Of a stretch of 64,000 nt of DNA, positions 7,558-54,877 are shown piece by piece. Source of the DNA: Amphiscolops sp. MND2022 (taxonomy: Eukaryota). Below the pieces are notes generated by a model, which worked only from the letters and a program-made list of their open reading frames with translations, was not told the origin of the DNA and searched no databases. Position 1 is the stretch's first letter; every line of letters begins with the position of its first letter. The position numbers and the translations under genes were made by a program. The DNA lies in the NCBI GenBank assembly GCA_964187785.1, contig OZ076409.1, positions 4,280,001 through 4,344,000 of the forward strand. Reading direction: 5' to 3'.

Positions 7558-8614
7558 TAGTTCTGGGTGACAAATATTTTCAAACATGCTCGGGAACAGT
7601 TATTTAAAAGACACCCGCTGACCAACAGGACACATTCCGTTCAAACTGTTTTAGCAACGAAATAATTGTGAGGATCAAAAGCAGCATGTACACTATGAAA
7701 CTGCATAAACGTTTGAAGGGAAAAAAGTTTTGACGGATTTTGATTCATGTTGCCATCCCAACTTTGAAGGAAACACTCGGTTCAAGAACCACTAAACACA
7801 GGTTTGATTATTTTCTTGTCACACTATGTGGATTCCTAACAGTACCCAACCAACGAAATTTTCATAGGTCTGCAAGGAAACTCACTAACAAGTTCAATAA
7901 AATGTCAAACACTTTCATATTTGGTGTCATTTCGCAGTTTTTTTTTCTACAACGAAAACTTCACACTGTTCCTTCACACAGTACTGCATAGCTAGTTATT
8001 TTGCCCGGAGCCTAATGAATAAAACATGACAATAAGTGTCAAAAAGTATTTCAACGTTTTTAATGACAATTTCGTGCGATTTTCATATGAAAAACTACCC
8101 GATTGCTACATTATTCAGTTCCGCATATTTTATAAAAGCAAAACCTTAGAATACTGTGATAAAGTGGGGATAATTCGTCAGTCGAACGTTCTAAAGTTTT
8201 AGACACTTTTAACAATTTTCTGAAAGAAGTTGCCGGTATCCCTTTTTCAATTATTTTGCCTTCAAAGGGTCCCACCTTCAAGTTTTTCTGATACTTTGCA
8301 GCAAACTAAAGTGCCAAAAAGCCCAAAGGGTCTTCCCTTGTAAGTATTTAGGCACTATGAGAGTGTTCAAAATTCTCATTTTTCACTTCTTTTCGAATTT
8401 TTTTTAATTTTCGAAAAAAAATGTCTCCAAATGGTAGTAGGTGTTGAACATTTTCATCATTATAACCTTCGAAACGCATCAAAAATTTCATACAAATCGC
8501 ATAAAACATTGAAAAAATGGGTTTCTACTGCTTTACGTCTCATTCGGCATTCGGGTCAATCTGGAGAGGTTTTGAAGCGAACCACTGCGTTTTGCCTTCA
8601 AAAGACAATACTAT

Positions 8615-9036
8615 TGTGATGCCATGATGCATGTCCTCAAAGATTCCATGAATCTGAAATAGTCTGAACTCCTAACCAAAGTGATTAGTAAATGTAATTT
8701 CATTTGAAAGCTAATTATCTTAGAAGAAACTTCACTTAACATATCCTGTAACAAGCTTCTCAGATGTATCCTGTTACTGTCACTTTCTTATTGATGTAAA
8801 TGAATTGAATCTACCCTAGTTGATAAGATATATCTACTTGGAGAAATTCAGATTCTAATTCACCAAACAGTCGTGTTTTCGACTTAGAACTTAACTGAGA
8901 TCTCAGAAAGACAACACCTAGAAATAGCTAGCCAAACAGACTTGAAATAAGATGACCTCGCTGTTAAAATCTTAGACTTCTTATGTCTGTAATGAAACAT
9001 CTTAAAGAAACAACCACCACACTTTTTAACAGCTCA
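8615..9036 (+). repeat. Element A 5' LTR (422 bp)
   Basis: Direct repeat of 35107-35529; about 16 substitutions plus 1 indel by hand count (~4%). Confidence 0.95.
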
Positions 9037-9038
9037 AT

Positions 9039-9056
9039 TGGTGCGACCAAGAAAAC
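9039..9056 (+). promoter_or_regulatory. Element A primer-binding site (tRNA identity not assigned)
   Basis: TGGTGCGACC... begins 2 nt after the LTR-terminal CA. Confidence 0.65.
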
Positions 9057-9193
9057 TCTTCTTTCTCTCCCACTCATTTCACAACTCTACAATTTTTGTA
9101 CACCTTTTCTCGACTTTCTCATCAGATATCTCTTTGTTCGACACACAGTTTCTCCACCTCTCAACATCGCCTATCGCTATTAACTTCAATGTT

Positions 9194-9485
9194 GCAACCA
9201 ATTTCTACAAGAAAATGATTCGTGTTGCTATGGTTCTGACTACGTCCTTCCACGTAATTCCTGTCAGTTACAATTCTTGGTTCTGACTGCGTTTCTCCAG
9301 GTAATTCCTGTCAGTCATTTTTCTTGGTTCTGACTACGTTTCTTAGCGTAATTCCTGTCACTAAATTTTTCGTTCCAACTACCTCTGAGTGAATTCGTGT
9401 TGGCTTTCTCTTGTTCTTCCGTTCCAACTGCAGCCGAGCGATACGTGTTGGCCTTTCTACAGTGCTATCCAGCGATTCCTGCTAG
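9194..9485 (+). ncRNA. Array of at least 6 bulged stem-loops in the element A leader (candidate packaging/cis RNA element)
   Basis: Outer stems GCAAC/GTTGC, CTGAC/GTCAG (x2), TGAC/GTCA, CCAAC/GTTGG (x2), each with a conserved ATTC(C/G)T-like 3' bulge; spacing ~45 nt. Confidence 0.6.
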
Positions 9486-9773
9486 TAAAATTTGTTTGGT
9501 TCTAGCCACTTGGATCAACTTTGAAGTTGGCACACCTATATAACATATATCTTTTACATAATACCATTCAAACACTTCTTTTCCTCTCTCTCCTGTAGTA
9601 CAAATCCCATACAAAACTCTTTCAAAACTACTTCACGGATCCAAATACAAAACAATTAAAAATATATAACAAATCAATCAAATAATTCTTTATATAACTT
9701 TCATTTTTTACACATTTATATAACAGATTTTATACAAACTTCTTGACATACTCCTATTAGAACTTCATTGTAC

Positions 9774-12700
9774 ATGCCGTCTTCAGTAGACATTGTAGTT
9801 AAGCTCATTGTCTGCTTTTGGTTCTTTGTTGCTATCGTTGCCGGTCTTGCACTTTTTCTTGACAGATTTTTAATATCTTTTATACCAAAATTTTTAGGTA
9901 TAACTTTTCCTTTCTATGTTAACAAGTATAGTACTACCTCTTTTTGGACTGCTTAGTATTTACTACACCTTTTATACGCTTATACAACATATACAAAACC
10001 CATTTCTTCTTTTCCTGAGTACAGTACGTACAATTTTCTTACAAGTTGTATTCATAGACCAAATCTTACCATATAACTCACAATTCAATACAAAATATCT
10101 TCTTTTGCAATACATCTATCCTTTATGGCAATCTTATTATACTAACTAAATTTTGCAACAAATAATGCTTCCTCCTCCATTTACACTAACTACAGAAAAA
10201 AGACAAAATCGGTCTCTCATGCAAGATGTAACACCTTTTCTAAATAACATCATCATTCAGTACACAAATCCACTTCCATTTGAAACAGAACCACATACAT
10301 TACATACCATTCCATTGGCACGAGAACATTGTGACTCTTATCTTTATTACATTTGATATCAAAAACTTAAAATAACATCATCACAAACCCCTTTTCAAGT
10401 TATTTTTAATCCAGTTAAAGGAATAAGTCCTGGAACATACTATAGAACCATCCATCCACAAAATTTTACACTTTCTATACAAGATAATTTCAGCACATAC
10501 ATGCAAAAACCTATTGAGTTCAATGAGAACCAAGATACACCACTTTACCGTTCTTCTCACCTAGAAGATCTAAAACAAATCTGAATATTTCGAGGTCCCT
10601 GATCTTGACACAAGAATTCAAAGACATGATAACCCTCATTACTGGCTACACCAAGATATCTTACAGATAAAAAATTTCCAATACAAGTTCTTTAACAACA
10701 TTATTCTTACGGATGACACTATTCCTCAAGTCAAAGATTTTACTCATTTTATATTAAAGTTTTTCCAATTTAACTATCAACTACTCTGGGAACAACAAGA
10801 TCAACAAGCTTACATTAACTTTCCTCAAATACTAACACAAACAGGACTCTTACCATACATTATAAAAAAATGAAAATAAACATTTACAATACAGAGATCT
10901 TACCTCTTTTAATATTACATATTTTCAACAAATAAATTCAGACCACACCTTTTTAGTTGAACATTCTGAAACTCAGATAATCGACATTTTATTACATCTG
11001 ATATTTCTCCAGAAACAACTCCTGAAGAACAAATCTCCAATGTTGAACTTCCATATACTAGACAACATTCAGTACAATCAGAACAAGAAGACCTTGATAC
11101 CCTTTTCCTAAATCCAGAACCTCACCAAGAACACCCACTTTAACCACCATTACCACAAGTTTCCGATATACAACAAGCGAATCCTTCTGAAACTGCTACA
11201 ATCCAGAATACATCAGAATTTTCTGAAGAAACTATGCAAAATACACAAAGTTCTACAATAACTGACGACTCAAATCTTATACAAATTCCTACAATACAAT
11301 TCCACAATATCACCCAAAATGAAATTAATTACCAAAACCATGACAATACTTTAAGTACAACTCAAGACAATATCTCTGTTTTATCTACATCACATACTAA
11401 TATTACACAACCATCTCAGACACAAGCATCGCCTCGTCCAAATTATGACCCACCTTCTATTCCACCCCAATTCCCAACTCAGATTCAAACTCGTAAATCT
11501 CCTCAACAAAGCTTTTCAAATACACAACATACTACACAAAACACCAATACAGTACATTTTCAAACACCAACCCCACCATTACCTACTGAAATACAAACTT
11601 CAACCTATACTCCAGCTCAAACTAATCCAAACTGTACAAAATGCACAACCTAGTTTAAATATAAACACCATTCATTCGAATCCACCCTTTAAGTACACCA
11701 CTTCCAGACATCTTTCTCGACCTCCATTACAAACTATATTAGGTAATCCATTATCGTACAATCTTACAAGTACAAATCCAAGTCATACACAACAATCTCA
11801 GACAAATAATAACAGACCCATTCATTAAATACTTTCCCTTCTCAACACACGTCTAATACAATCACACCTACATTACAAACTTCCCAATTTCGAATACAAA
11901 ATCCTCCTTCAACAACAATTAGAACTAACCCTCACTTTCACAACACTTCTACCACTTCTTTTACTAACTTTTCAAATAACCCTACATACAACACAGTACC
12001 ACCACCTACCATATCTCACAATTCTATTTCACACCCAACGTATATCAACTCTCTACTTCAATATCAGAACCTATTAAACCTTTTGATGGACTAGATCATA
12101 ATTATACACCTGAAGAATACTTACAACATATTGAGGCACGTGTTACATTTTCTTTTGGTTTACAACCTACATCAGAACATGAATATAAATTTTGGCACGC
12201 TCGTTGCATGGCTTTCATACAATGCTTTTTACCAGGTACAGCACTCAGTTGGTACATCCGTTTAAATGACTCCATGAACACGATTGGCACGCTTTTGTAC
12301 AAGTTTTCAAAAAACAATTCTCTTCACAAACGAACGTTTACTATGCTCAAGTTGAAGCCCTTAACTTATCCAAGAAAGATAATGAAACAGTACGCCATTT
12401 TGCACTCAAAGTTCAACAGCTAGACGAAAAAGGCTGGTGTAATGAGAACGCATCCACTATTTACCTCAAATGTAATGAAATTTTTACAAAATGACTTCCT
12501 AAAAACCTTAAAGACTTTGCAAACAAAAGACAAGTAAAACACACTTCTACTGATTTAGAACCTTCAATTCCCTTTCATACAATAGTAAAACTTGTTGATG
12601 CTGAAGATATTGCAAACGACAAAATTAGAACACATGATCTTGCACTTGAAACTAACAATATTACAAAATAGTTGAACACTCAAAGCCTTGAACCTTCATC

Positions 12701-13394
12701 TCAAGAACAACTTATGTTTACTCAACCCAGAGACCCAAATAACAAGAATAAACCTGCATATAAAAAATATTGTTCATACTGGCATAAACCAAATCATTCC
12801 ATCTCTGCTTGTTTCAAAAAACAACGAGACGATGAAGACAAACGAGATGAATATGCTCGATCAAAATCTCCTCAAAAATCATTTGTACAGTACATTCGTT
12901 CTCCTTCCAATGATAGAACGAAACACTATGATAATCGATACCGAAGTCGACGTACCTCACGAGACAATTCTTACAATAAAAACTATTCACAAAATCAATA
13001 CCGTTCTACATCTAGAGATAGATTTAGTTATGACAAAAGTACTACTGCTCCACAATACTCTAGATCACGATATGATACTTACAAACGTGACTCCCGGTCT
13101 TACCGCTCTCCATACAGATCCTCGTACAGATCTCCTTACCGACACAACTCTCGCCCTAGATACAGATCACGCTCCTATTCCAGAGACAACAAATTCACAA
13201 AATATACAAATTCATACAGACCACCTTCAAGACCAAAAAAATCTAGATTTTCTAGATCTCGCTCACACTCCAATTCTAGAAACAAAATTAATTTGAAACA
13301 ACAACAAAACCAATCTGACCCTATAAAATTTGAAGTACACATGTATCACCCAACAGCAATGGCAAACGCTGTGACGCCTACAAGTTGGTTTTGA
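9774..13394 (+). pseudogene. gag: Element A gag, copy 1 (fragmented; 5' boundary uncertain)
   Basis: S/T/P/Q-rich linker; capsid-like IKPFDGLDHNYTPEEYLQHIEARV...GTALSWY; degenerate knuckle CSYWHKPNHSISAC; RS/RY-rich tail; multiple stops and frameshifts. Confidence 0.75.
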
Positions 13395-16300
13395 ACTCTA
13401 TATGTTCATACACCATCAAGTATAACACAAAGAGACAACCCATCTAGATTAGAAATTGCATTCCTTCTAGATAGCTTCCATCTCTGTATTAAATTACCCA
13501 AAATACATAACTCTTAGAAAACTCTTAGATATAAGACCAAATCACTCTTCTGACGTAGGACCAACTCAAAATTCAAAAACGTTAACCGTTGCAAATCAAA
13601 CCGATGTTCCTATATTACATTTTGCCAATATAATTTTGAACACCACTATTGATGAAAATTCTCGTTACTTTTCAGTACCTTTTGCAGTAGCTGATATCAA
13701 ATACAATATTCTTCGTACACACTTCTTTGAAGACAATATACAAAACATAAACATACAAGACTTTACACTCGAATTCAAATACCAATCAAAAACACACCCA
13801 AACTAAGCAAAATTCACAACACTCCTATCTAAAGACTACCCATATTTCTCATACAATTATAGAATTAATTCAAAAACTCAAATACGTCTAAAACCCAAGT
13901 CTTCTAAAATTGCACACTTTCCAATAAAAAATTATCATCATCTTCATTTTACAACTACACCACAAAATCACTTCTTCCCTTCAGTACCACATACCTATTT
14001 TCCTACTAAATTTCGTACAAATTTCAATTTTATTGAAGTATTCACAGATGACAACCCAGACATTTGTGCAACTATTATCCAGAACACCTCAAAACATGTT
14101 GCAACACTACCTACAGGACACATTGGATTTATCGAAGTTCCAATCACGAATGAAAAACCGAAATTCTTCCAAGTTATCGATATTAACACCTTAATACATA
14201 ATGTTACTCATACATACCATCCTGAAATCACTGAACCAGGTCCACCAACTAACTATATTGTACACTACGACAATCCTACAACTCCTTCTCCTCAATTTTC
14301 AATACATCAAATTTATATGACAAATTCTGACATACCAAATCAAACTTCTCCTTTATACAACGTTCAACCTACTTCTCACACTTCTGGAAAACGCATTTTT
14401 CCTTCTTTACCATACACTTCTGAAAATCTGAAAGTTATCAACAAATTTAACTTCCAATTTTCTGACTTTACAGACACTGAATACATTGCCCTTTGCAATA
14501 TGTTACTCAAATACAAAACATGTTATGCAACTCATAAAAACGATGTTGGAAAAATTTCAACTCCCTTTCATATTAGACTTAAACCCAATGCTCAACTTAT
14601 GACACAACGTCCTTCTAAAGTCCCTATTCACTACAGAGACAAACTTAATGTACTTCTCAGAGAACTAGAAAAATATAACAATATAAAACAAAATGGTTCC
14701 TCTCCACAAGATAAACCTGTTTATGGTACAACTTATTTAAACCCTTTCATTATAATCCCCGAGGAAGATACTTTAAAATGTGTATTAGACGCTCGACATC
14801 TTAACTCCAATACAGAACAATCTGATGAATCTTGGCCTATTGAATCTCTCGCTCCAGCACGCGCAAACAAAAACTTTTTTATCATAATTGTTCCGGAATG
14901 TAGGTGTACGAATTACTCTACTGAATAAAACTCTGGAATCTGAGACACGTTGCACTATTTGCTTTCTACATAATTGGCCCTAATGAGGCCTGGCATAAGT
15001 GGCAATTATTTGGCCCCATTAACTTGCCAAGACACAAAAATGCGGAAAGTAAGATTTCAACATCAAAGGAAGCTAAGGCAGTCGACATCAAAGGGGAATG
15101 AATTCAGTGCACGTGTCTCGGTTTCCGAGATTTCGTGTCCTGATTTCCGCAAAACGCTCAGAAAAAGCTTGCAGATGCACTGTAATGAAGTACAAATCTG
15201 CAATTGACCTTTTGTATGCCTATGCACATACACCTCTTGATGAAGACACTATTAAACTTACCAGTTTCTCCTCAGGAGATAAACTCTTCGCTTTCATCCG
15301 TGGCTTTTATGGTCTCAAAGGACTTCCAAACTTCTTTACAAAACAAATGTCTACCTTCTTTAAAACTCTTATAGAACAAGGTTTTGCCCTTGTCTACATT
15401 GATGATATATTACTTTTATCCGACTCTGAAGAACACATGTTCCAACTCATAGAACAATTATACATTATCAGTACAAAAAACAATCTTACACTAGCCCCTG
15501 AAAAATCATTTTTCATGCTCCTTAAAATCAAATTTCTTGCACATGAAATTGGTTTCAATACATTTAAACCAATTCATTCGAAAATTGCAGCTATTCATGA
15601 AATCCCTTCTCCAACTGTCAAAGGTGCTCTAATGATTTTCATTGGCGCACTCAACTTTTACACCAAATTCATCGAAAAACTACATATTAACCTTAAACCG
15701 TTTTACGATCTTTTACATGAGAACACTCCTTGGAAATGGACAGATGAACACGAAAGTCTTCTTCAAAAACTCAAAATGTCTCTCACTTCTGAAACAGAAC
15801 TTACAATACCAAATACAAAACATCCATTTTTTATTACAGTTGATGCTTCACTTATTGGACTAGGCGCTGTCTTATTCTAATTAAATGAACAAAACAAAAT
15901 GAAAGATTTATCGTACAACTCTCGTATACTCAATCCACAAGAACAAAAACTTTCAACACTCGACCGAGAACTTCTTGGTATAGTACATGCTCTCCAAATC
16001 TATGAGTTTCTTGTCATCGGTTCTCCTCATCCAATACATATTTTTACTGATCACAAACCTTTATTACATTGTTTTACAAAAAAAGTAACCTTAGTCCTCG
16101 TTTTTACAGAGCTCAAATGCAATTAACGAAATTTTCTAAACTCAAAATAATTCACACTCCTGGAAAAAACCTCTTTGTTGCCGATATGTTAAGTCGCTCT
16201 TTTACAAAAGCTGAACTACAATTGAATTAACTAACACACAAACTACTTCCACCACAAATTGATTTTGCACTTTCACAAAATGGCACTCTTAAACCTGTAC

Positions 16301-18687
16301 ATTACTTAATTAAACACGAAGAAATCTTACCTCATCAAAAACATGACTCCCACCCAATTCTCGCTGATTATGGTTCAGATCAATTCTCTATTCGTATCAA
16401 TGACAAAGGAAATGACATTGTTGTCAAACTATTACAATCCTTCTCATTCAAATCCATGATTCCTGTTCAAACAAAGTTCAAAACACCTATAAAAAAGAGG
16501 AATAAAACCCTTCATCAACAATCTCTCTTACTCAATGATACTGATATTACAAGTGATGACGAAGATTATATATATACAAGAATTCCAAAACCTGACTCTT
16601 CCTTCTTACATGACACAACATTACAAACAGAAAACTATTCTACTCTCAACAAGTCGATATCTAACACCCCACAAAAATCTGTTTTTGCAACAAATGTACA
16701 AACAATTTTACCATCTGTTACACATTGTCCACAGATTATACCTTTCTATGATACATCATTTTTCAAGTACAAAAATTGTTTTCAAGATTTCTTTCTTCCA
16801 GATGACTACTCATTAGACATAACAACACTTCAACAACAACAATCCCAAGACCCGGTTCTTAGAACTGTTTATCCTTGGATCGTTAAAAATGAAACACCTG
16901 AAACTCTAACACCACTCATCACTGATACTCCTTTTCTACATGCTTATTACGAACGATTTTCACAACTTTTTGTAGATAACTCTACAAATCCTATTAGCCT
17001 CTATAATAAACACCCTGCTGTTCAAAATCAATCTTCTACTCCAGATTTTGTACGCGTTACTATTCGAATATGTCTTCCTTTCAGACTATTCAAAACTGTT
17101 TTTTAACAAACTTCATGAACACTCTCATACAGGTATCAAAATTACAAATAATACATTCGCACAATATTACTATATTCCATTTGTTGAAAAATGGCTTTCC
17201 AATTCCATACATGACTGTGTTGAATGTCAACGCAATAAACACTTCAACATGAAAATCCAAACTGCACCTACACAATCATTTTCAGAACATGCTCCATCTT
17301 TCAACGAACGCACTTCAATGGACACTACAGGACCTATTGTTCCTCCTTCACACAACAAATCTTATATACATGTCATCATTGACGCTTTCAGCCACTTTGT
17401 TGTTACAGTACCCATCAAAGCAAACAACGCAAAAACTGCAATCAAAACTCTCCTACACCATTGGATTATTAAATTTGGACCACCCATATATCATGTTACT
17501 GATCGAGGATCTGAAAATGGAAACAAAGAAATGGCACAACTTTGTACACTTATGGGAATTCGTCATTCTCCCGGAACAGCCTACTCTCCTTGGACAAATG
17601 GCCTTGTCGAAGTACAGAACAGAAATCTTGGTACACATTTACGATTGTTCTTACATGATATACCTAAAGATTGGGCATTCCAAGTACATAAGTACGCTTA
17701 TGCACATAGTCCACAACCACTTTCAGAACTCAATAATTCTCCTCATGAAATTGTTTTTCACACAAGACCCAGAATACCCCTTACTTTCGATTTAAATCTT
17801 AATAGAGACAACTCTAAAACATGTATTTCACGCTATTGCTCTCAACTCCCAGAACACTCACATTATGACAAACCCGATCTTAATCCATTTTTTATAGAAC
17901 ACTTTCAAAATCCATTCCACAATGGTTTCTCGCTGTAGAAACTGCTATGTTACAAAGATATTCTACAGTATATGAAAACACTCTACGAAAAATCAATTCA
18001 CACGCATACATTACAAAAACCTATCACGAAGGTAAACCACTTCCTATTGGCACCTTTGTTTTAAAACGAAATTTCACACACGTACATTTTTCTGACAAAC
18101 TAAAACCCCTTCGGTCTGGACCATACAAAATTTTTGATAGACTGTCAGACGATACATATGAACTACTTGCACAAGATAGCTCTACAATACATGTTCATCA
18201 AAATCATTTGATTCCGTACTATCCAAAAGAACCAATTTTATACCCACATTTGCGTAGTTTCATGCGCTTTTCAGACACAACCCAATTCCAAATTCCACAA
18301 CCTACCAAATACGCAAACAGTGCTTCTTCCCCTTTTAATTCAGCCGAATCCTTATCAGACGAAGACTCAAAAACATTTATGACACCATCCACTACAGAAG
18401 ATTCTTCTCAAACATTTACGACACCATTCAGTACTTCCAATCAAAATACACCATCTATAACATCCAATCACAAGTCTTTAACTCTCCCAACCAATGACAA
18501 CTCTTTATTCAAGGATATAATTAATACCCCTCACACTAAATTCCCTAGTGACAGATCAAGACACCCTTCGCATAATCAAACAGATTCACTTCTTCCTCTA
18601 ATTGACAGAACTACGAAAACTACTTATAAACTACGACAACAACCCAAATTAGATTATAGACTTTTTATAACACCCTCGAAACTGTAA
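13395..18687 (+). pseudogene. pol: Element A pol, copy 1 (PR, RT, RNase H, integrase)
   Basis: Protease remnant FLLDS..SISVL; RT GFYGL and YIDD; RNase H TVDAS, ELLGIVHAL, FTDHKPL; integrase HEHSH..CVEC, IIDAFS, TDRG, VEVQNR and a GPY motif. Stops, frameshifts and a 314-bp insertion. Confidence 0.92.
14874..15187. mobile_element. 314-bp foreign insertion in RT of pol copy 1
   Basis: Absent from copy 2 (GCAAACAAAAAGTAC at ~23247); apparent AA duplication; internal inverted repeat GAGACACG(T)TGCACT / AGTGCACGTGTCTC. Confidence 0.8.
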
Positions 18688-18759
18688 CAACATCATTCTT
18701 TCTACTGGCTCCCTCAAAACTAGTCACTACAGCTGAATGAAATATAATCACTAACAAGT

Positions 18760-20012
18760 TATCTCAACGATAACCTGTTGAAAACCCATTTCAAGAATCC
18801 TGGATTCTTCTTCTGATATATCTCCATCAGCTCCAAGTATTCTTTCTACTCCTGAATCATCAATATCAAACACTACAATTTCTCGTAATGTATCTCCTAC
18901 TACTCCTTCTAAAAGACCAAGATCATACGTTTCTGAAACATCTTCTTCATCTCTCTTTCATAAACCACCTATAACTGAAATCCCTATTACCACTCGTACT
19001 CAACAAACTCCTATTAATACTCCTATAGTACACATACCAAACCCTGACTGTTGAACAATACGTAAATTACAAACATCCTACAGCTATCAAAACTGTTAGA
19101 CTTCAACATCAGTTTAATCTTGTACACAATCCTGACACTGAATATACACGACTACCTCCACTGAAATTACCATCAGAACTCAGCAATACTTCTTCAAAAC
19201 TCTATCCTACTCTAAAACCTCTTCGAAAACCTTCTATATCACTATCAAATCTCTTAGACAGTACATCAGAATATACTTCATCAAAAGACACTACAAGCTC
19301 ACTTTTGTACCACAACATAGATATAATCTTCGAGACCTTCCTTCACGCAGAGTTGGTACAGATACTTCCAACCTTAATCTATCTGCTCTTTCTAGCATTT
19401 CTGCTTTACGACTTGTACGACAACACGCACAACCGTTGTCTTCTGAAACAAATTCCTCCGAATTTACACCTTCTTCGTATTTTACATCTGGTTTTGAAAT
19501 CGCCTCTCTACTTTCTTCAGACGCTCAGACTGCATTCCTTTCTGGAAATCTTTTCTCCGAAGTTATAATACCTACTCCTGTTCCAGCACATAGTAGACTG
19601 CCTGAATATTATACTGCAGATCAATCTAGACCTCCAACTCCAAATTTTGCTGACTATCCACTTCGAGTCGATGGAGTAACCATCAACGACCCACAGAACG
19701 ACCCTCGATTTCCTATCCTTGCAGAACGGTTTATCACAAATAACGATCTTTCATCTCAAAAAAAAAGAAACAGACCTAAACCGCCTTCAGACACTTAATC
19801 TAGAACTTAAATTTGAAGTCAAAGGTAAATTCCAAGGTTTAAACCGCCATCCAAAATTTCACGTCTCAAAAATAGAACGTAAAACCTCTCCTGCTCCTTT
19901 TGAAGTAGTACACATTGAATTTGAACGAGACCTCAATATACCTACTATTACATATGGCAAAATCACATTCTGTCCCCCATACTCAGGTCTTAAATATACT
20001 ACCTCCTTTTAA
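18760..20012 (+). pseudogene. Element A accessory ORF X between pol and env, copy 1 (unknown function; start approximate)
   Basis: Frameshift-linked ORF pieces: S/T/P-rich N-part, then PTPNFADYPLRVDG...ELKFEVKGKFQG...FCPPYSGLKYTTSF; overlaps the env start. Confidence 0.5.
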
Positions 20013-20371
20013 ACTCTACACAACCTTTTATATAACAACTCTCATACTACATTTACACTTATTCAACTTCACCTCTTCTATACCCATAACACCCTCTGAT
20101 ACAAAAAACTATCTCCCATCGGATGATCCAAAAATTACAAACCTTATGGTTTCTCATTATGACTGTGCAAAACAACATAATTTGAGACAATTTAACTTAC
20201 TTAATGTGAAACAATGCACTGAAGCTCCTTCCGACATTAAACACGCAACTGTTAAAGCCCATGTATATGTCCGAGCAAAGGCTAAACGCATTAAAGCTTT
20301 TAAATGTGTTGCTTATGCAAAAAAAGAAAGAAAGATTTGCTTTCAAGGTTCCGTAAAATACCGTCGTGTTG
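19954..20371 (+). pseudogene. env: Element A env 5' fragment, truncated at the duplication junction
   Basis: Near-identical to 28051-28468 (signal-like segment, HYDC...KQC...FKC...KIC); switches to gag sequence at ~20372. Confidence 0.85.
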
Positions 20372-20372
20372 T

Positions 20373-21776
20373 ACAGTACCACCATCTACAATATCTCTAA
20401 ATATCATTTCTCAACCGACATATATCAACTCTTCTACTTCAATATCTGATCCGATAAAACCTTTTGATAGGTTAGATCATAATTATACACCTGAAGAATA
20501 CTTACAACATATTGAGGCACGTGTTACATTTTCTTTAGGTTTACAACCTACAACAGAACAAGAAAATAAATTTTGGCACGCCCGTCGCATGGCTTTTATA
20601 CAGTGTTCTTTAACAGGCACAGCTCTCAGTTGGTACCTTCGTTTAAATGACACTTATAAACAAGATTGGCACGCTTTTGTACAAGTTTTCAAAAAATAAT
20701 TCTCTTCACAAAAGAACGCTTACTATGCTCAAGTTGAAGCCCTTAACTTATCCAAGAAAGATAATGAAACAGTACGCCATTTTGCACTCAAAGTTCAACA
20801 GCTAGACCAAAAAGGCTGGTGTAATGAGAATGCATCCGCTACTAACCTCAAATATAATGAAATTTTTACAAAATGACTTCCTAAAAACCTTAAAGACTTT
20901 GCTAACAAAAGACAAGTAAAACACACTTCTACTGATTTAGAACCTTCAATTCCCTTTCATACGTTAGTAAAACTTGTTGACGCTGAAGATATTGCAAACG
21001 ACAAAATTAGAACACATGATCTTGCACTTGAAACTAACAATATTACAAAATAGTTGAACACTCAAAGCCTTGAACCTTCATCTCAAGAACAACTTATGTT
21101 TACTCAACCCAGAGACCCAAATAACAAGAATAAACCTGCATATAAAAAATATTGTTCATACTGGCATAAACCAAATCATTCCATCTCTGCTTGTTTCAAA
21201 AAACAACGAGACGATGAAGACAAACGAGATGAATATGCTCGATCAAAATCTCCTCAAAAATCATTTGTACAGTACATTCGTTCTCCTTCCAATGATAGAA
21301 CGAAACACTATGATAATCGATACCGAAGTCGACGTACCTCACTAGACAATTCTTCCAATAAAAACTATTCACAAAATCAATACCGTTCTACATCTAGAGA
21401 TAGATTTAGTTATGACAAAAGTACTACTGCTCCACAATACTCTAGATCACGATATGATACTTACAAACGTGACTCCCGGTCTTACCGCTCTCCATACAGA
21501 TCCTCGTACAGATCTCCTTACCGACACAACTCTCGCCCTAGATACAGATCACGCTCCTATTCCAGAGACAACAAATTCACAAAATATACAAATTCATACA
21601 GACCACCTTGAAGACCAAAAAAATCTAGATTTTCTAGATCTCGCTCACACTCCAATTCTAGAAACAAAATTAATTTGAAACAACAACAAAACCAATCTGA
21701 CCCTATAAAATTTGAAGTACACATGTATCACCCAACAGCAATGGCAAACGCTGTGACGCCTACAAGTTGGTTTTGA
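20373..21776 (+). pseudogene. gag: Element A gag, copy 2 (3' part)
   Basis: Same capsid-like, knuckle and RS-rich segments as copy 1. Confidence 0.85.
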
Positions 21777-26788: not shown

Positions 26789-26859
26789 CCTCATCATTCT
26801 TTCTACTGGCTCCCTCAAAACTAGTCACTACAGCTGAATGAAAGATAATCACTAACAAG

Positions 26860-28109
26860 TTATCTCAACGATAACCTGTTGAAAACCCATTTCAAGAATC
26901 CTGGATTCTTCTTTTGATATATCTCCATCAGCTCCAAGTATTCCTTCTACTCCTGAATCATCAATATCAAACACTACAATTTCTCGTAATGTAACTCCTA
27001 CTACTCCTTCTAAAAGACCAAGATCATACGTTTCTGAAACATCTTCTTCATCTCTTTCATAAACCACCTATAACTGAAATCCCTATTACCACTCGTACTC
27101 AACAAACTCCTATTAATACTCCTATAGTACACATACCAAACCCTGACTGTTGAACAATACGTAAATTACAAACATCCTACAGCTATCAAAACTGTTAGAC
27201 TTCAACATCAGTTTAATCTTGTACACATTCCTGACACTGAATATACACGACTACCTCCACTGAAATTACCATCAGAACTCAGCAATACTTCTTCAAAACT
27301 CTATCCTACTCTAAAACCTCTTCGAAAACCTTCTATATCACTATCAAATCTCTTAGACAGTACATCAGAATATACTCCATCAAAAGACACTACAAGCTCA
27401 CTTTTGTACCACAACATAGATATAATCTTCGAGACCTTCCTTCACGCAGACTTAGTACAGATACTTCCAACCTTAATCTATCTGCTCATTCTAGCATTTC
27501 TGCTTTACGACTTGTACGACAACACGCACAACCGTTGTCTTCTGAAACAAATTCCTCCGAATTTATACCTTCTTCGTATGTTACATCTGGTTTTGAAACC
27601 GCCTCTCTACTTTCTTCAGACGCTCAGACTGCATTCCTTTCTGGAAATCTTTTCTCCAAAGTTATAATACCTACTCCTGTTCCTGCACATATAAGACTAC
27701 CTGAATATTATTTTGCAGATCAATCTAGACCTCCAACTCCAAATTTTGCTGACTATCCGCTTCGAGTCGATGGAATAACCATTAACGACCCACAGAACGA
27801 CCCTCGATTTCCTATCCTTGCAGAACGCTTTATCACAAATAACGATCTTTTATCTCAAAAAAAGAAACAGACCTAAACCGCCTTCAGACACCTAATCTAG
27901 AACTTAAACTTGATGTCAAAGTTAAATTCCAAGGTTTAAATCCCCATCCAATATTTCACGTCTCAAAAATAGAACGTAAAACCTCTCCTGCTCCTTTTGA
28001 AGTAGTACACATTGAATTTGAACGAGACCTCAATATGCCTACTATTACATATGGTAAAATCACATTCTGTAACCCATACTCAGGTCTTAAATATACTACC
28101 TCCTTTTAA
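26860..28109 (+). pseudogene. Element A accessory ORF X, copy 2 (start approximate)
   Basis: Duplicate of 18760-20012. Confidence 0.5.
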
Positions 28110-30762
28110 ACTCTACACAACCTTTTATATAACAACTCTCATACTACATTTACACTTATTCAACTTCACCTCTTCTATACCCATAACACCCTCTGATACA
28201 GAAAACTATCTCCCATCGGAAGATCCAAAAATTACAAACCTTATGGTTTTTCATTATGACTGTGCAAAACAACATAATTTGAGACAATTTTACTTACTTA
28301 ATGTGAAACAATGCACTGAAGCTCCTTCCGACATTAAACACGCAAGTGTTAAAGCCCGTGTATATGTCCGCGCAAATGCTAAACGCATTAAAGCTTTTAA
28401 ATGTGTTGCTTATGCAAAAAAAGAAAGAAAGATTTGCTTTCAAGGTTCCGTAAAATACGGTCGTGTTGATAGAACAGTATGGAATCATAATACATTACCA
28501 CTTCCTGTTACTCTTGATCCATTAGAATGTAAAAACATTATAAAATATCTAATGGTACAAATGATAAAATATTTAACAACCTTCAATACAATGAAACTTT
28601 TACACTCTTAGAAGATCATTACTTTCAAGAACGATTAGAACAATATCAAACTCCTTTCACTGTATACCAATTGAACAAAATGTCTACAGGTACCTTTACC
28701 TTTATGCCTGCAGACAAAAACTGGATATACCACCCTACTCGAAACCCTTACTATAACTGTCCCGCTCATCATCAATTCGAAGTCAATTTAGTTAGTCGGC
28801 GATTAGAAATTTCTGGTGTAGAACTTACGTATGATGATACATCTAATGATATGATAATAGATGGACATACATTACCCTGCTATTTTTCAGATGGTTTTTG
28901 CAAACCCACAACGAAAACTCCTTTTACCCTTGTTTGGTTCCATGATGATTACTGCTTAGTACTTACACTACAAGACTTTATTGGACGTATGACTAAAATC
29001 GAAGATAGATATTGGATTGAAACTTATTCCTTTGTACATTCTCCACACTCAATAAAACCCAAAACAACTTCTGGTATTAAAGGTACAGAACACCCATATG
29101 TTTATGCTCCTCATACACAACATCTTAATAATCCAAGTCTTTCACGTTTTGAAGTTTTTCCTGCAGCACAAACTTTTGTGGTAAACCAGACCCACTTCAT
29201 TCTACACAATATTCAGACCTTTTTGTTACATACACTGATGGTTTCAATATGCATACACAACCCAATCCTCACTCTAGGTATGATGAATATATTTCTGGCA
29301 AAATAGTATTGGACACATCAAATAACAAATTCATATTCCCTGCATTAAATGTTCCAAAAAACTTCGCTACCATTGACTATGATGCACATGTAAATACAAA
29401 AATTGACTACACTATTAATCACGTTTTCGTTCAATGAGAGTACAAGAACTTAATACTCTTCATACAATATGTGAACTAGAACGAAATCAACTTCTTACAA
29501 TACTCGCAATGTCAGTACAAAACCCTCATTTTGCTGGTTTCCTTTTAACAGGTAATCGAAGCAACTTTTTGTACGTCGAAGGCTCCACCGCCTGGCTCTA
29601 TGACTGTCCTCATTTCTTATCTCCTTTATACAAAGCCGATCGATGCTTTGACCGTATACCTATACACTTTAAAGATACTCTAATGTACGTTGATCCTATT
29701 ACAAGACAAACCTATGACAATGCTACTCCAATTACATGTGATAATAATCCACGAAATATGATTGAACTAGATCCTGACTCAGATGATCAAGATTTTTATA
29801 TTCTTGCACCTGAACCTATTAAACGCAAACCTCCACTAATGTTTACACCTTCTCAAATTAAAACTACAATACGCCCTACCACTTTTACAGCCCAAGATGC
29901 TGGTAAATATTCCAATGCTGAACTTGATGAATTCTGGAACCGCATCTTTTTTTCTAAACATTCTGACTCTACACTTCAATTACTTGAAAAAGCCCTTAGT
30001 TATTCTTTCATTTCATCTAATACTCCTGATTATGGTGCAGATTCCCCTCATGGTACTGGTAATCCCCACAATACATTACGTATTGGACTACATGATAAAC
30101 TTTTAAACTCAACTCCTCTTTTTACACCTACATGGTTTTCAAATGCTTTTATTGCACTTTTTGGATACCCTTGTTATATTCTCACACAATGTGGTATTTA
30201 TTTTTCTACATTCCTTTTTGTACAAGCTACTCTTACACTCATCGTCAAACTTTACAAAACAAAATCTATTAAATATCATCTAAAAAATAATATTACTTGG
30301 TTTAGTTCTATAGCACATGGTTTCTTTAACATTCTTACAGCACAAATGGTCAACGACCTTCATGATACTCAAAATTAAAAACACAAAAATCCCTTTTTTA
30401 AATCCAAATTTCTCGACCATCTCTCTGACACTTCAACAATTCTAATTAACCATTCTACCGGTATTACTTCCCGTCCACCTTTCTATACTAAACGTCCTAA
30501 TAAACTCCAGATACCAAAATTTGAATTTTTTCCGAAAAGACATCACTTTTCTCATCCGAAAATTACCTTTCAACCATCTACGCTTCCTTCTTCTGAACAA
30601 CATCCCTCACTTCCTAATTATTCCTCTACAAACTCACATCCGAATGACAATATAGCCACTCAACATGACACCTTAATTAACACTTCTGTCACGTCTAATA
30701 CGGATACACCTATTAAAATCTATTCACGGGTAAATTATCAATTTCCTCCGCCATTTTCTTGA
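28051..30762 (+). pseudogene. env: Element A envelope glycoprotein, class III fusogen-like (chuvirus G / herpesvirus gB-like), ~900 codons, frameshifted
   Basis: Hydrophobic signal-like N-terminus; HYDC..LLNVKQC..FKC..KIC..LEC; ICELERNQLLTILAMSVQNP..AGFLL..VEGSTAWLYDC..DRCFDRIPI..YVDPITR..TPITC; C-terminal TM region (FIALFG..GIYFSTFLFVQATLTLIV). After a TAA at 30376 a 127-codon in-frame tail runs to 30762. Confidence 0.8.
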
Positions 30763-30775
30763 ACTCCCTCTCAGC

Positions 30776-32453
30776 TTGCTTGACAACTCTCTTCTAGAAT
30801 ACTTCACTCCTCTTCATCAGTTTCAGCTCTTGAAATTTTCACTACTTCGCACCTCTTCTCTCCAAAACGAAAATTCTTTCAAAATTGCTACTCCTGCAAC
30901 TCTAGAAACTCTTGTAGAAATTCACGTACCGCAAATAAACAGCACACCCATCATCCTCGCAGTTCTCAAAAGCTCTCCTTCAAAAGTTGACAAATCAACT
31001 CGTAAGTGTATTTTATAGTACTTGTATTTTACAGTACTTTAAAGTGATAGGCCTCTTGGAATAGATATCACTGTGATTGTTGATGTTTTTAACACAATGA
31101 CACAAGCACAAGTCAATATACAAAATCAACTTGAACAAGCTACAGCAGATCTCACAACGAGACGTCTTCTAAATGATTCTCCTGTTCTATATACTGACAC
31201 TTCTGAACCAATACCTACCACTTCTCTCGAACAAAAGGAACAAGAAAAAATTGAACATTAGACATCGAAAGTTTCAACTCCACTCAATAATTATGATCAT
31301 ACACACGCATCACCACCTCCTCCGAAAAAAACAATATGAAATAATGAAAGATCTTGTCTTTCTTTCGTCACCAATCTATCCTCCTTTCATATCTGCAAAT
31401 ACTTCTCCTTCTACAAATCGTGATGATCATTTGATTTCACTTCTTTCTCACGATGATTTCACCTTTAAAGCACAACTAACTTCTCTCTACATGCATCCTA
31501 CAGACTATTCATTTCGCTTTTATGACGAAAATCAAGACTTCTTTACATCTATTGCTTCAAAAATCATGGGTCCATACCAAAACTGGCTTGACAATGGAGT
31601 CAAAATCTTTCCTCTACAATTTAATTTTCTTCGCCCATCCATATACGATTCAAAAACAGACAAATCTGATCCATCCTTTCTCTCTGTATCGCAAAAAGCT
31701 ACTCATCATCAAACATACACTAATTTTCTACAGCACACAAAACCAAAGAATTACATTTTCGTTAAATACAAATTTACATCACCCTTCACAATGACAAACA
31801 TCTACACTCTTGATCACTCCTGTAGAACAGGATATCTTAGAAACTATGATCCTATAAAACAGTACTACTGTTTACTGCCATACAATAACACTTCACGCCC
31901 ACTTATTGTACCTCAAGAATACCTTATACATTTTGATGATTTTTTGTTGCCTTGCAACGTTCCTACACAAATAGTAAAACCTCTCGCTGTTATCAAACAT
32001 CTTGTCTCTTCTCCACTAGGTGACAAAGATAAAACATATTATACAGCTCTCTACAAACAGACATACTCATATAACGAACTTCTATTTATTGCAACCAAAA
32101 CCATTTCGTTTATGGTACAAGCTGAACAGAAATCAGAACACAAAGTATCTTCATCACCAATCAAAAATACCTCTGACAAACTTTCCTCTGTCTTGAACAA
32201 TCGAACACTTCGCGATATAACAAACCTCTTAGACCCATATAAACAAACACCTTCTGAAACACCCATCATCACACTCACACATATACTACACTGCTACGAC
32301 AGAACACACAAACTCTTACAGACACTTGATCTAGACTCTCAACGCATTACTCAATCATCCCAAGCATTTCAATCTGCTTTGGAATCCATAACTACTCTTT
32401 TTAATTCAACTAATCTTCATTATATTCTTCTACAGGTAATACAAAATTCTTAA
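30776..32453 (+). pseudogene. Element A accessory ORF Y downstream of env (unknown function)
   Basis: 426-codon open frame 31173-32453 plus upstream frame pieces 30776-31261; codon style matches the element's other ORFs. Confidence 0.6.
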
Positions 32454-32591
32454 TTTTTCTCCTCTGGTACACTATATGGCACACCTTTGAACTACATTAA
32501 AGGTACTACCTAAAGGTAACACATTCTGAATGATTCCTCAGGAATTTTTTACTTTTACAGTACATGAAAATGTTTTCGATTCTTTGCCTAT

Positions 32592-33010
32592 ACTGGTCTT
32601 CTCACTCTGTTGAACTGAACTGGACTCAATTCACTTGCAATGAACTGAACTGGACTCAATTCACTTGCCAATTTCAAACTATTCACTTGCCGCAAATGTC
32701 AAATTTTACTCTAATCCAATAACTTTAATATAATTTTAATCTAACGTATACTCTTATTTATTGCTAATTCATAATGTAACCTTAATAGTGCATAATCTTA
32801 CCTAATCTCAATCTTGTATAATCATATTATAGTTACCCACCTCACAAACTCACCTCACATAGTTGCTAAACCCTCACAAAATTTCGTTTATCATTATCTT
32901 TGTAACCGCAAAATAGTTTCCCAAATTATATCCCCATTGTTATGTTTATAATACATCTATTTAACAATTCTATAATCCACATCTTTTACAGCACACAAGT
33001 CCTACGTATA
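32592..33010 (+). repeat. Internal 419-bp direct repeat, copy 1
   Basis: Near-identical to 33972-34390; contains a tandem 30-mer TGAACTGAACTGGACTCAATTCACTTGC. Confidence 0.9.
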
Positions 33011-33250
33011 AATATTACGCGTATACATATAAATACATATAAATATTACGCTATAAGACACCTTAAAAAAATATATTAGCACCAAGATAAAATACATTCT
33101 AGCACCAAATTTTGTTGTACACCTTTGACTTGTCATTGTCAAACTTCTCAAACGTTCTTTGTTTTAGAAACATCTATTCTTCTTCCTCCTCCTTCCGCAT
33201 TCTTCCAAAACATTCCCACTTCTTTCTCACATCTTCAGAACTTCGTCACC

Positions 33251-33699
33251 ATGGCTCCCAATGCTGAAACAGAAGACGTTATTACCATGCCTCAGATTTC
33301 TCAAAGGTGCACAGCCTCAAAGCCGCCATTTTTCACACAATGGCCTAAACACTTTCTCTGGATCAACTAGAACAAAATTACACCAAAAACTCTTATCGCT
33401 TTTCTCAAAGTTTTATATAACGTTGCCCAGATAAAGAAGAAAAAATCACTTTTGAACAGTACTCTCGATTTCATGTAGCTGGCCCAAAAATCGCAATATG
33501 CAAAACTGCTTCAAATGCTGTTTTTGTTTTAAATTCCTCATTCACATCAAAGGATCAATATTTCCACACTGCCATACAAGAAGCAACGACTGCTCTCAAC
33601 AACATCCTCCAAGATTTTGGGTACACTCAAACTCTTGAGTACTACGACCCTAATGTTCATCAAGCACATCCTCCGCCGCAACATCCTCTGTTTCAATGA
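33251..33699 (+). pseudogene. Element A small accessory ORF Z (~150 codons, disrupted)
   Basis: ACCATGG start (MAPNAETEDV) and an open 3' portion KITFEQYSRFHVAGPKIAIC...HPPPQHPLFQ*. Confidence 0.35.
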
Positions 33700-33971
33700 T
33701 TAACTAACACTTTCACTCACCTTCATTTACTCTTCAACTACATCTCATCTTCACTCCTTCATCTTTCTTCGATGATATCCCGAGATGTGGTTGCTGATCA
33801 CTCCTCCAAAGAACTTCGCTGACACTTCTCACTGCTTCATGCACACCCTCCAGATGGTCAACATCATCCATCGCCACTGGGCCACTGGGTTCTTCAACCT
33901 TGACAACCTGCTTCTGCCTCTGTCAACTGGTCTTCACAACCGTCACTGCAACGCTGACTTCTTTCTACTTG

Positions 33972-34390
33972 ACTGGTCTTCTCACTCTGCTGAACTGAAC
34001 TGGACTCAATTCACTTGCATGGAACTGAACTGGACTCAATTCACTTGCCAATTTCAAACTTTTCACTTGCCGCAAATGTCAAATTTTACTCTAATCCAAT
34101 AACTTTAATAGAACTTTAATCTAACGTATACTCTTATTTATTGCTAATTCATAATGTAATCTTAATAGTGCATAATCTTACTTAGTCTCAATCTCGTATA
34201 ATCATATTATAGTTACCCACCTCACAAACTCACCTCACAAAGTTGCTAAACCCTCACAAAATTTCGTCTATCATTATCTTTGTAACCGCAAAAAATTTTC
34301 TCAAACTATATCCCCATTGTTATGTGTAAAATACATCTATTTAACAATTCTATAATCCACATCTTTTACAGCACACAAGTCCTACGTATA
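33972..34390 (+). repeat. Internal 419-bp direct repeat, copy 2
   Basis: Near-identical to 32592-33010. Confidence 0.9.
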
Positions 34391-35106
34391 GTACAAAAAT
34401 TTCCTAAGATTTTGACAAAAATTGTTTTTACATAACATGCTTCCTACATCTTTATTTTACTTCCCCAAAAACTTTCCCCAAAGTTTTCAAAATTTTTCTT
34501 CTGAACCTTTCAAAACTTCAACTTCTCATTTTTCGATGTTTGAAACTTGCAATTGTCAAAGTTTTTTTAATTTCAGAACTTCTTGCTTCTGCTTTACTCG
34601 TCACTTTCGTTGAAAATGAACTCTCACTAGAACCTTGACTTTTGGAAACTTCTTCACTTTTGGTTCACATACCCGCCAATGTTGGTTCACAACTCATTGA
34701 CAACTTCACGCTTTAATTCTTCAACTTGAAAAGTTTTCAATGCTGACTAACTCATGTTGATAAAATTTTTTCAAACAAGCTGATGGCTGATACGAAAAAG
34801 AAACATGAAATAGTTAATAGTTGTCAAACATAACTTGAACAAAACTGTCAGTCAAAGAAACTGGAAGAAACTGAACCTTTTTGCACCAATTGAATCGTCT
34901 ATGACGTAAGAAGTCAAATTGTCTAAGGTTGTTCTCACTCCTTAAGTATAGTACTTTTCAGAACAAAACTCACGCATAACTCATATGAAACAAACCCATG
35001 CATAAAAAATCTGAAACAGAAATTTTAACATTTGAGACAGAAACTTTAGAACTCCTCAAACCCAAAATGCAAGTATGTAATTTTATTTTTCAAATTCCCG
35101 GTTGAT

Positions 35107-35529
35107 TGTGATGCCATGATGCATGTCCTCAAAGATTCTATAAATCTGAAATAGTCTGAACTCCTAACCAAAGTGATTAGTAAATGTAATTTCATTTGAT
35201 AGCTAATTATCTTAGAAGAAACTTCATTTAATATATCTTGTAACAAGCTTCTCAGCTGTATCCTGTTACTGTCACTTTCTTCTTGATGTAAATGAATTGA
35301 ATCTACCCTAGTTGATAAGATATATCTACTTGGAGAAATTGAGATTCTAATCCACCAAACAGTCGTGTTTTCGACTTAGAACTTAACTGAGATCTCAGAA
35401 AGACTAGACCTTAGAAATAGCTAGCCAAACAGACTTGAAATAAGACGACCTCGCTGTTAAATTCTTAGACTTCTCATGTCTGTAATAAAACATCTTAAAG
35501 AAACAACCACCACACTTTTTAACAGCTCA
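35107..35529 (+). repeat. Element A 3' LTR (423 bp)
   Basis: Direct repeat of 8615-9036; AATAAA at 35484; followed by TSD CTAT. Confidence 0.95.
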
Positions 35530-37458: not shown

Positions 37459-37473
37459 TAGAAACTCATTTCT

Positions 37474-54860: not shown

Positions 54861-54877
54861 AGGAGCCTGGGGAGTGA
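54861..54877 (+). promoter_or_regulatory. Element B polypurine tract
   Basis: AGGAGCCTGGGGAGTGA abuts the 3' LTR. Confidence 0.65.

Follow-up and report, generated by a model that had tools for sequence, protein, structure and literature searches.

An old copy of an abundant Ty3/gypsy-type endogenous retrovirus with an envelope gene and three further conserved genes in Amphiscolops sp.

The element at the locus

The window considered here is the whole stretch of 64,000 nucleotides that was analysed from Amphiscolops sp. MND2022 (assembly GCA_964187785.1, contig OZ076409.1, positions 4,280,001 to 4,344,000 of the forward strand). Positions 8615-35529 of this window are occupied by one long terminal repeat (LTR) element of 26,915 bp, all parts of which are read on the forward strand. 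With good confidence, it is an old, dead copy of a very abundant Ty3/gypsy-type endogenous retrovirus of 17.5-18 kb, which carries an envelope gene (env) as well as three further genes under selection, X, Y and Z, expressed in the manner proposed below. X is the open reading frame (ORF) between pol and env, Y is the ORF that survives as 426 codons in the window, and Z is a small ORF near 33.3 kb. The copies of the family fall into the sublineage of the window (W, seven copies), the M sublineage (P0015-type), a young sublineage (P0047-type) and a fourth, deep lineage known as T (P0502-type).

The two LTRs, 422 bp at 8615-9036 and 423 bp at 35107-35529, both start with TGTGATG and end with CAGCTCA when read base by base, and a repeat search of the window placed direct repeats of about 424 bp at 8613-9036 and 35105-35529. 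Their alignment of 425 positions contains 16 mismatches and one gap, which amounts to 96.0% identity. The four bases CTAT are read directly on both flanks (8611-8614 and 35530-35533) as the target-site duplication. TG...CA ends, together with a short target-site duplication of 4-6 bp, are features of the Ty3/gypsy elements (Metaviridae). Two nucleotides after the 5' LTR lies TGGTGCGACCAAG (9039-9051, by direct reading), which resembles a primer-binding site and is kept in the W, M and young copies. A transfer RNA (tRNA) scan of the window returned no genes, and the tRNA priming at TGGTGCGACCAAG was not found there. Similarly, Rfam gave no match in the window and two young-copy stretches.

The unusual length of the window copy is due to a tandem duplication inside the element, seen as repeat pairs 8.07-8.38 kb apart. 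Unit 1 (11980-20371) runs from the gag core to about codon 139 of env, where it is joined to the second gag core, and unit 2 (20372 to about 28470) carries this gag core, pol and X on into the complete env. The units are 96.1-96.8% alike, with 255 of 8048 aligned positions mismatched (3.2%). As this distance is close to that between the LTRs, duplication and insertion are of about the same age. Without one unit, the element measures 18,523 bp. A previous reading of the DNA made from the sequence only (the sequence-only reading) had put the repeated unit at about 8.4 kb and the remainder between its flanked LTRs at about 18.5 kb, and both figures hold. The hexamer ACAGTA (window 20360-20385) is found at the gag-side breakpoint, and again in the intact env copy a few bases past the env-side breakpoint. 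This microhomology lies near the join, not at it, and a template switch during reverse transcription would be compatible with it.

The window copy also has two smaller changes of its own. An insertion of 314 bp (14874-15187) is present in unit 1 and absent from unit 2 and all other copies; the inserted DNA is richer in G than its surroundings. Further downstream, 32592-33034 is a duplicate of about 440 bp of the stretch 33972 to about 34400, which no other copy has.

All genes of the window copy are broken. A long, ATG-poor leader (9037-10164) is followed by the gag-pol of unit 1 at 10165-18687, the start of which was placed by tblastn and the stop of which is common to the copies. Besides the 314-bp insertion, it holds a low-complexity gag N-terminus and a CCHC-like knuckle, together with Retrotrans_gag, reverse transcriptase (RT), RNase H, integrase and SH3 as identified by Pfam. 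X is present twice, as a first copy with three frame changes at 18800-20009 and a second broken copy at 26901-28106, both located by tblastn with the open 420-codon X of the young copies and by the ORF map. Env is likewise present twice according to tblastn, once truncated to codons 1-139 at the duplication junction (19954-20370) and once over about 900 codons with four frame changes (28051-30753), where Pfam also recognizes it. Y (31097-32420; ORF map and tblastn) has one frame change near 31326, and its remnant at 31173-32453 is the only gene portion still open. Z follows, broken, at 33301-33693 (tblastn). Searched with the open proteins by tblastn, the window returns the gag N-terminus in three frames, X in four pieces, env in four and Y in two. 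The window copy is, in short, an old, dead and privately duplicated member of its family.

The family in the genome

The assembly that holds the window comprises 1.07 Gb in 1929 contigs. A search with the window LTR yielded 3023 first-look candidates, of which the 40 best-scoring gave 42 matches, and six LTR pairs spaced 17.1-17.5 kb apart reveal six full copies of 17,516-17,979 bp by their LTR coordinates. All six are unduplicated monomers, colinear with the window element at 88-93% identity, and none of them contains the 8.4-kb duplication, the 314-bp insert or the 440-bp duplicate. Their LTR pairs are 95.5-97.9% identical. One M copy is 84-88% identical to the window, with the same gene order and with its genes broken except for Y.

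Two young copies share 72-78% DNA identity with the window element. The LTRs are 100% identical in one of them (417 bp) and 99.05% identical in the other (4 mismatches in 419). As the LTRs of this sublineage are still 99-100% identical and its ORFs are mostly open, its mobility must be very recent. The young copies were analysed as overlapping stretches that were not joined, and the six W copies as overlapping 10-kb stretches. From all these copies, the layout of the family can be given as an LTR, a leader of 1.1-1.3 kb, a single long gag-pol frame followed by X, env, Y and Z, and a 3' non-coding part of about 1.5 kb before the second LTR.

The first-look candidates in the genome number 7,637-8,651 for X and Y, and Z has about 3,800; these figures count candidates and not copies. 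These numbers suggest that the clade makes up a sizeable share of the 1.07-Gb genome. The host genome has 21 matches to the nuclear-receptor family zf-C4 (PF00105), which has none in prokaryote controls; this marks the host as an animal, and the count is presumably low for a vertebrate.

The coding strand of the element is very poor in G, and the interior of the window copy (window 10000-34000) has a GC skew of -0.29 to -0.56. APOBEC-like hypermutation of the window copy was considered as the source and ruled out, since the open young copies are equally poor at 9-11% G. Low G is a standing property of the family and not the decay of one copy.

Gag-pol and the envelope

The Pfam matches of the element come in the gypsy order: Retrotrans_gag, RVT_1, RT_RNaseH_2/RT_RNaseH, Integrase_H2C2, rve, SH3_Tf2-1 and Integrase_p58_C. 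Retrotrans_gag (PF03732) is found at E of about 1e-8, above its cut-off, and a CCHC-like knuckle is present in the gag ORF. In one young copy, gag-pol is open over 2677 codons from stop to stop. No Pfam family for a protease was found at E 0.01 in the ORFs of the element; the order RT-RNase H-integrase, with RNase H and integrase of the gypsy type, is that of Ty3/gypsy elements. No retroviral Gag or RT-thumb family was reported by Pfam, and the domains found in place of those of the Retroviridae are of the Ty3/gypsy type. On the basis of its Pfam domains, the element is classed as a Ty3/gypsy-type endogenous retrovirus of an animal.

The protein encoded after pol and X matches the family Monjiviricetes_fusion (PF24664), with an E of 4.9e-15 for the window fragment and of 2.7e-21 for an open copy of 912 codons. 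The Monjiviricetes are negative-strand RNA viruses and take in the Mononegavirales and the Jingchuvirales; the name of the Pfam family gives the virus class only. In the open env, codon 2 is the ATG; a hydrophobic N-terminal segment lies at about residues 16-42 and a hydrophobic anchor at about residues 700-735 (Kyte-Doolittle hydropathy above 1.5 at 717-735), after which comes a tail of about 170 residues. An ORF after pol with a signal-like segment, an anchor and homology to a viral fusion glycoprotein is what defines an env-bearing gypsy element. Against PDB sequences, env found nothing at E of 1 or below, and among the IMG/VR viral contigs it had no relative.

Two small hydrophobic ORFs of 39-40 and 77-79 codons lie directly 5' of the gag ATG, at 9774-9956 and 9916-10149 in the window and at 5240-5359 and 5468-5704 on the reverse strand of the young-copy stretch. 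Three sublineages preserve where they start and stop as well as their hydropathy, with one to two segments resembling membrane spans. Their pN/pS (the ratio of non-synonymous to synonymous differences) is 0.52-0.81 in frame, not different from that in one shifted frame, so that no frame-specific constraint is seen. They may be small membrane proteins or mere upstream ORFs regulating gag. They are not claimed as genes, a status that could be given to them with low confidence at best.

Three further genes: conservation and selection

In open copies, X spans 420 codons between pol and env, Y, which follows env, has 460-473 amino acids, and Z has 159-165. In the young copies, these lengths are 420 codons for X, 912 codons for env, 473 amino acids for Y and 159 amino acids from the ATG for Z. 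The start of env overlaps the end of X by 59 nt, env being in the +1 frame relative to X.

How commonly these ORFs are open was scored on the best-scoring candidates only, which biases the following shares towards intact copies. X was open, at exactly 420 codons, in 100 of 100 scored young copies, and Z was open in 148 of 150. Y had no stop in 88 of the 90 scored matches to the young P0047-type (98-99% identity), in 76 of 92 to the P0015-type of M (95-100% identity) and in 78 of 98 to the P0502-type of T (93-100% identity). X, Y and Z occur in the same order in all six other W copies, the M copy and the two young copies. In the deep T lineage, Y again follows env and is 42% identical to the P0047-type, while an X-like region before env has 44% identity over X residues 244-420. 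Protein searches retrieved 484 relatives of X, and 313 relatives of Y with 440-475 amino acids, down to 58% identity, with further, deeper ones at 31-44%.

Selection was assessed by comparing a young copy with eight W and M sequences in DNA-level MAFFT alignments, in which the differences were counted in all three frames. The alignment was made at the DNA level because a protein-guided one could bias the result. For X, pN/pS was 0.29-0.35 in frame against 0.98-2.30 in the other frames; for Y, 0.29-0.43 against 0.84-1.75; and for Z, 0.29-0.36 against 1.04-1.77. The known genes gave in-frame values of 0.22-0.26 (env), 0.12-0.14 (integrase), 0.07-0.21 (RT-RNase H) and 0.17-0.21 (gag core), and the non-coding leader gave 0.67-0.89, alike in all three frames. 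X is constrained over its whole length, beginning with the first 70 codons, at 0.37-0.54 in the first 140 codons and 0.10-0.36 after them. Protein-guided NG86 estimates of omega were 0.13-0.30 (X) and 0.08-0.12 (Y). The three ORFs are, as observed, genuine protein-coding genes that are family-wide and under frame-specific purifying selection between sublineages.

It could be argued that the ORFs X, Y and Z arose by chance, or else are nested insertions or private cargo, and that the element is an ordinary Gypsy swollen by junk. Seen from the window alone, such a view has something to recommend it, as its ORFs are short and broken and lie beside truly private extras, namely the 8.4-kb duplication, the 314-bp insertion and the 440-bp duplicate. 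The other copies refute it: the same ORFs recur in the same order in six W copies, the M copy and two young copies, they are open in 88-100% of the scored young copies, and the constraint on them is specific to their frames. Its probability is negligible. The sequence-only reading had proposed at least three unassigned ORFs on the same strand besides gag-pol-env. Three ORFs, each without a Pfam family, are indeed there, broken as they are in the window copy. The open copies could have overturned this proposal and instead bear it out, and the ORFs are neither neutral between sublineages (in-frame pN/pS of about 0.3) nor private nested insertions, being found in every W, M and young copy examined and, in the case of Y and an X-like ORF, also in T.

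A proposed route of expression

The manner in which X could be translated is peculiar, since its 420 codons contain no methionine or ATG at all, against 1.4-2.3% methionine in the C-terminal part of pol, in env and in Y. Its frame opens 62 nt past the pol stop, in a different frame from pol and directly after an in-frame TGA. This position excludes readthrough or frameshifting from pol. At the point where conservation starts (LDSSS), 11 of 11 aligned sequences from three sublineages have a CTG, preceded by A at -3 and followed by G at +4. Database relatives of X (P0129, P0130, P0177 and others) start with M; the M-copy DNA shows TTG at the start of P0130. As the proteins apparently come from a prokaryote-style gene caller, such an N-terminal methionine may not be a real ATG.

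The lack of ATG extends over the whole stretch from the pol stop to the env ATG, which has three ATG in 1268 nt (2.4 per kb), while pol, env and Y have 17-26 per kb at the same G content (0.095). Shuffles of this stretch gave a mean of 11.3 ATG (P 0.0035), and shuffles of its codons a mean of 8.1 (P 0.02). None of the three ATG is in frame, and the ORFs that start at them, of 1, 17 and 11 codons, all close before the env ATG. The M copy and eight W units have the same ATG-poor stretch, with 0.8-5.2 per kb compared with 10-26 per kb on either flank, and the T lineage keeps it as well, with 4 ATG in 1500 nt.

These features suggest that X and env would be read from a single subgenomic messenger RNA (mRNA), by non-AUG initiation combined with leaky scanning. 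Ribosomes would initiate weakly on X at the conserved CUG, which stands in a good context, and most of them would scan past the nearly AUG-free stretch to the AUG of env. Both halves of such a scheme have precedents. In HIV-1 (human immunodeficiency virus type 1), leaky scanning gives access to env on a bicistronic mRNA that it shares with vpu, and murine leukaemia virus starts its glyco-Gag at a CUG. Separate transcripts would be required for Y and Z. As Y contains 26 ATG, Z is out of reach of leaky scanning and needs its own RNA.

The overlap of X and env admits another explanation, according to which X is the N-terminal part of a longer envelope precursor, joined to env by splicing or by a programmed frameshift within the overlap, leaving Y and Z as the only extra genes. 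In its favour, X lacks an ATG and overlaps the env frame with its last 59 nt, env lies in the +1 frame, and in two database proteins (P0194 and P0198) X is fused in frame to the env N-terminus. However, these fused proteins, two among the 12 aligned, have the look of decayed copies with frame shifts. Env has its own ATG and a hydrophobic signal-like segment that is kept in all lineages, and the ATG-poor stretch points to scanning towards this ATG. An envelope precursor that includes X is therefore improbable, and the reading of X as a gene of its own, translated ahead of env, is preferred.

Possible functions and the weight of the evidence

X is rich in serine, proline and threonine (13.8% S and 13.1% P). 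AlphaFold2 predicts structure only over about the last 100 residues, as two helices and five strands with a predicted local distance difference test score (pLDDT) of 50-60, and the remainder of the model is unstructured. In the alignment of its relatives, Y is acidic and variable at its N-terminus and strongly conserved in a core at about residues 110-350, and its model has a C-terminal helix at residues 421-471 with a pLDDT of about 70. X may then be a mostly disordered protein with a small C-terminal domain, and Y would combine a conserved core with a long helix at the C-terminus. All three proteins are provisionally taken as accessory proteins that would serve particle formation or spread, or act against host control. 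A match of the W-copy X ORF to NYAP_N (E 0.0065; 16.2 bits for a cut-off of 38.6) is sub-threshold and was disregarded.

Several points weigh against the reading advanced here. With regard to function, none of X, Y and Z, in the window or copy ORFs, has a Pfam family past the curated cut-off. A search of PDB sequences with the X profile, the Y profile and Z gave nothing or only noise at E above 0.7, and the ESM Atlas held no usable match for Y and only leads below 0.8 for Z. The Y profile had no relative among IMG/VR viral contigs, which were searched with this profile and env only. The mean pLDDT is 39.2 for X (alignment of 21 sequences) and 38.4 for Y (22 sequences), and with models so poor, any function is a guess. 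With regard to distribution, no Z-like ORF is present in the T lineage. All protein relatives come from one source, and the three that were tested (P0047, P0015 and P0502) lie in this genome, so that nothing places X, Y or Z outside this species. The DNA that was read covers two young copies, one M copy, part of one T copy and seven W copies out of thousands of candidates. With regard to selection, the synonymous sites are saturated (pS 0.6-0.9), which makes the omega values rough and the true omega lower.

The same caution extends to expression and to integration. Splicing, the CUG start and leaky scanning are all deduced from sequence, and the codon shuffles support the depletion of ATG only at P 0.02. 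Part of this depletion follows from X being free of methionine, and a disordered protein rich in serine, proline and threonine could be so for other reasons. The 4-bp target-site duplication is perfect in only four of the six assessable W copies, these being the window copy, B, E and F; C has three of the four bases, D has no match, and copy A is not assessable. The young copy with identical LTRs has no matching duplication either (TCAT and CAAA). This copy may be a product of recombination between copies and not of simple insertion.

In the T lineage, the position of Z is taken by a 200-codon ORF after Y (reverse strand 499-1101 of the fetched stretch), which is unrelated to Z. The last gene slot, thus, seems to have been exchanged between lineages.

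The match of env to a glycoprotein family of negative-strand RNA viruses raises the question of whether X, Y and/or Z came from one and the same virus as the glycoprotein, captured together with it. They would then be structural genes of that virus, such as those for a nucleoprotein, phosphoprotein or matrix protein, and not accessory ones. Env does match a family named for the Monjiviricetes, and Y directly follows env in two lineages so deeply diverged that they share 42% identity in Y. The modelled X, disordered with a small folded C-terminal domain, is reminiscent of the phosphoproteins of negative-strand RNA viruses. Nevertheless, no Pfam family or PDB chain matches X, Y or Z, Y has no relative in the viral contigs, and the X and Y models are too poor for a comparison of folds. 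A joint capture is unlikely, and the view of X, Y and Z as accessory genes is retained.

The sequence-only reading had likened these genes to those of complex retroviruses. As to architecture, the likeness stands, for X, Y and Z are real, conserved genes beyond gag, pol and env, which is a trait of complex retroviruses. An accessory or regulatory function is analogy only, as no homologue of known function was found. A wider interpretation is put forward tentatively, with somewhat less than even confidence. The family may be an invertebrate counterpart of a complex retrovirus, in which a Ty3/gypsy lineage acquired the envelope of a negative-strand RNA virus and afterwards evolved or captured at least three accessory proteins. 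It would translate a CUG-initiated upstream gene with leaky scanning to env, both devices known from vertebrate retroviruses, and, with its hundreds to thousands of copies, it would still be spreading through the germline of its host. In that case, X, Y and Z would represent new protein families for particle export, cell-to-cell spread or evasion of host silencing.

Neighbouring elements in the window

Just downstream of the element, at 35900-36303, lies a solo LTR with its own target-site duplication, GCTG on both flanks. In the LTR comparison, it is 81% identical to the LTR of a sister sublineage over the full length of that LTR. The sequence-only reading had noted such a solo LTR at 35900 as a sign that the lineage has diversified in this genome; this is correct, as are the Gypsy assignment and the size given for the element.

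A second, unrelated giant gypsy element adjoins at 36689-55150, with terminal repeats that are 100% identical over at least 300 bp and a GC content of 52-56%, against 33-37% in the studied element. It has open frames of 411, 2053, 520 and 1439 codons. The frame of 2053 codons is gag-pol (zf-CCHC, protease, RT, RNase H and integrase), and the other three have no Pfam family, the longest being hydrophobic near residues 904-942 and 1030-1050. This neighbour, too, may be a retrovirus-like element with several genes. When its four ORFs were compared by BLASTP with X, env, Y, Z and the gag N-terminus of the studied element, no match had an E below 0.03. A third LTR element at 56480-62429 has 191-nt repeats 5759 bp apart, broken ORFs for gypsy RT, RNase H and integrase, and a strong AT skew (0.29-0.38).

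Comparison with known systems

Ty3/gypsy elements that carry env, the "errantiviruses", are described as widespread in metazoans (Chary & Hayashi, eLife 2026, PMC13524379). The same account gives 114 gypsy elements with a Chuviridae-like, gB-like glycoprotein in Coleoptera, Hymenoptera, Polyneoptera and Hexanauplia (PMC13524379). As described there, those elements resemble the present family in having a gypsy gag-pol followed by a viral fusion glycoprotein, and in their many near-identical copies in animal genomes of the invertebrate type. The present family differs from them, going by their description and not by sequence, in its length of 17.5-18 kb, in X before env and Y and Z after it, and possibly in the two leader ORFs. 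According to its stated procedure, the survey discarded LTR pairs more than 14,000 nt apart and did not seek other ORF arrangements (PMC13524379), so that 18-kb elements with X, Y and Z would not appear in it.

Other lineages have acquired genes in comparable ways. The LTR elements of bdelloid rotifers are reported with a single, varied ORF3, which may encode an env-like glycoprotein, a GDSL esterase/lipase or a DEDDy exonuclease (Rodriguez, Kenefick & Arkhipova 2017, PMC5408684). By that account, they share with the present family the presence of ORFs beyond gag-pol, some of them env-like and from negative-strand RNA viruses, but here three domain-less ORFs plus env are combined in one element. 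The lokiretroviruses of vertebrates, a sister group of the Retroviridae, are reported to have an Env that matches PF00523 (paramyxovirus F) and, in some cases, an SMC-like gene (Wang & Han 2020, PMC7947760). As far as that report describes them, the resemblance lies in an Env like the fusion proteins of the Mononegavirales type and in the extra gene of some members, while the present family differs in its PF24664 env and its gag-pol of the Ty3/gypsy type.

A retroelement with the glycoprotein of a negative-strand RNA virus as its env is found in mosquitoes as well, in the BEL/Pao superfamily. To our knowledge, these mosquito elements have no extra conserved ORFs. Their glycoprotein is described as captured from Chuviridae (Dezordi et al. 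2020, PMC7642597). They belong to another superfamily by that description, and the present family has no BEL/Pao-type Pfam domain and a gag of the Retrotrans_gag type.

In full-text searches of the literature on env-bearing gypsy elements, with repeat libraries and the host genome paper lying outside them, the layout gag-pol-X-env-Y-Z was not described. Env-bearing gypsy elements themselves are known, and what is new is the addition of three conserved genes to such an endogenous retrovirus. These elements have so far been treated as three-gene elements. An 18-kb element of seven parts, with three more genes under selection and very recent copies, means that a "complex" organization is not confined to the Retroviridae of vertebrates. 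It also provides three new and abundant protein families for experiment.

A parallel in layout exists with the complex retroviruses, namely the lentiviruses, deltaretroviruses and spumaviruses, which likewise have extra genes between pol and env and after env. The present family is set apart from them by a pol of the Ty3/gypsy type, not of the Retroviridae, and by X, Y and Z, which have no similarity to known accessory proteins. In translation, the parallel is with vpu-env of HIV-1 and the glyco-Gag of murine leukaemia virus, as an AUG-poor ORF precedes env and a conserved CUG stands at its start. The ATG-poor X region with its conserved CTG thus offers a concrete, testable case of a convergent translational strategy.

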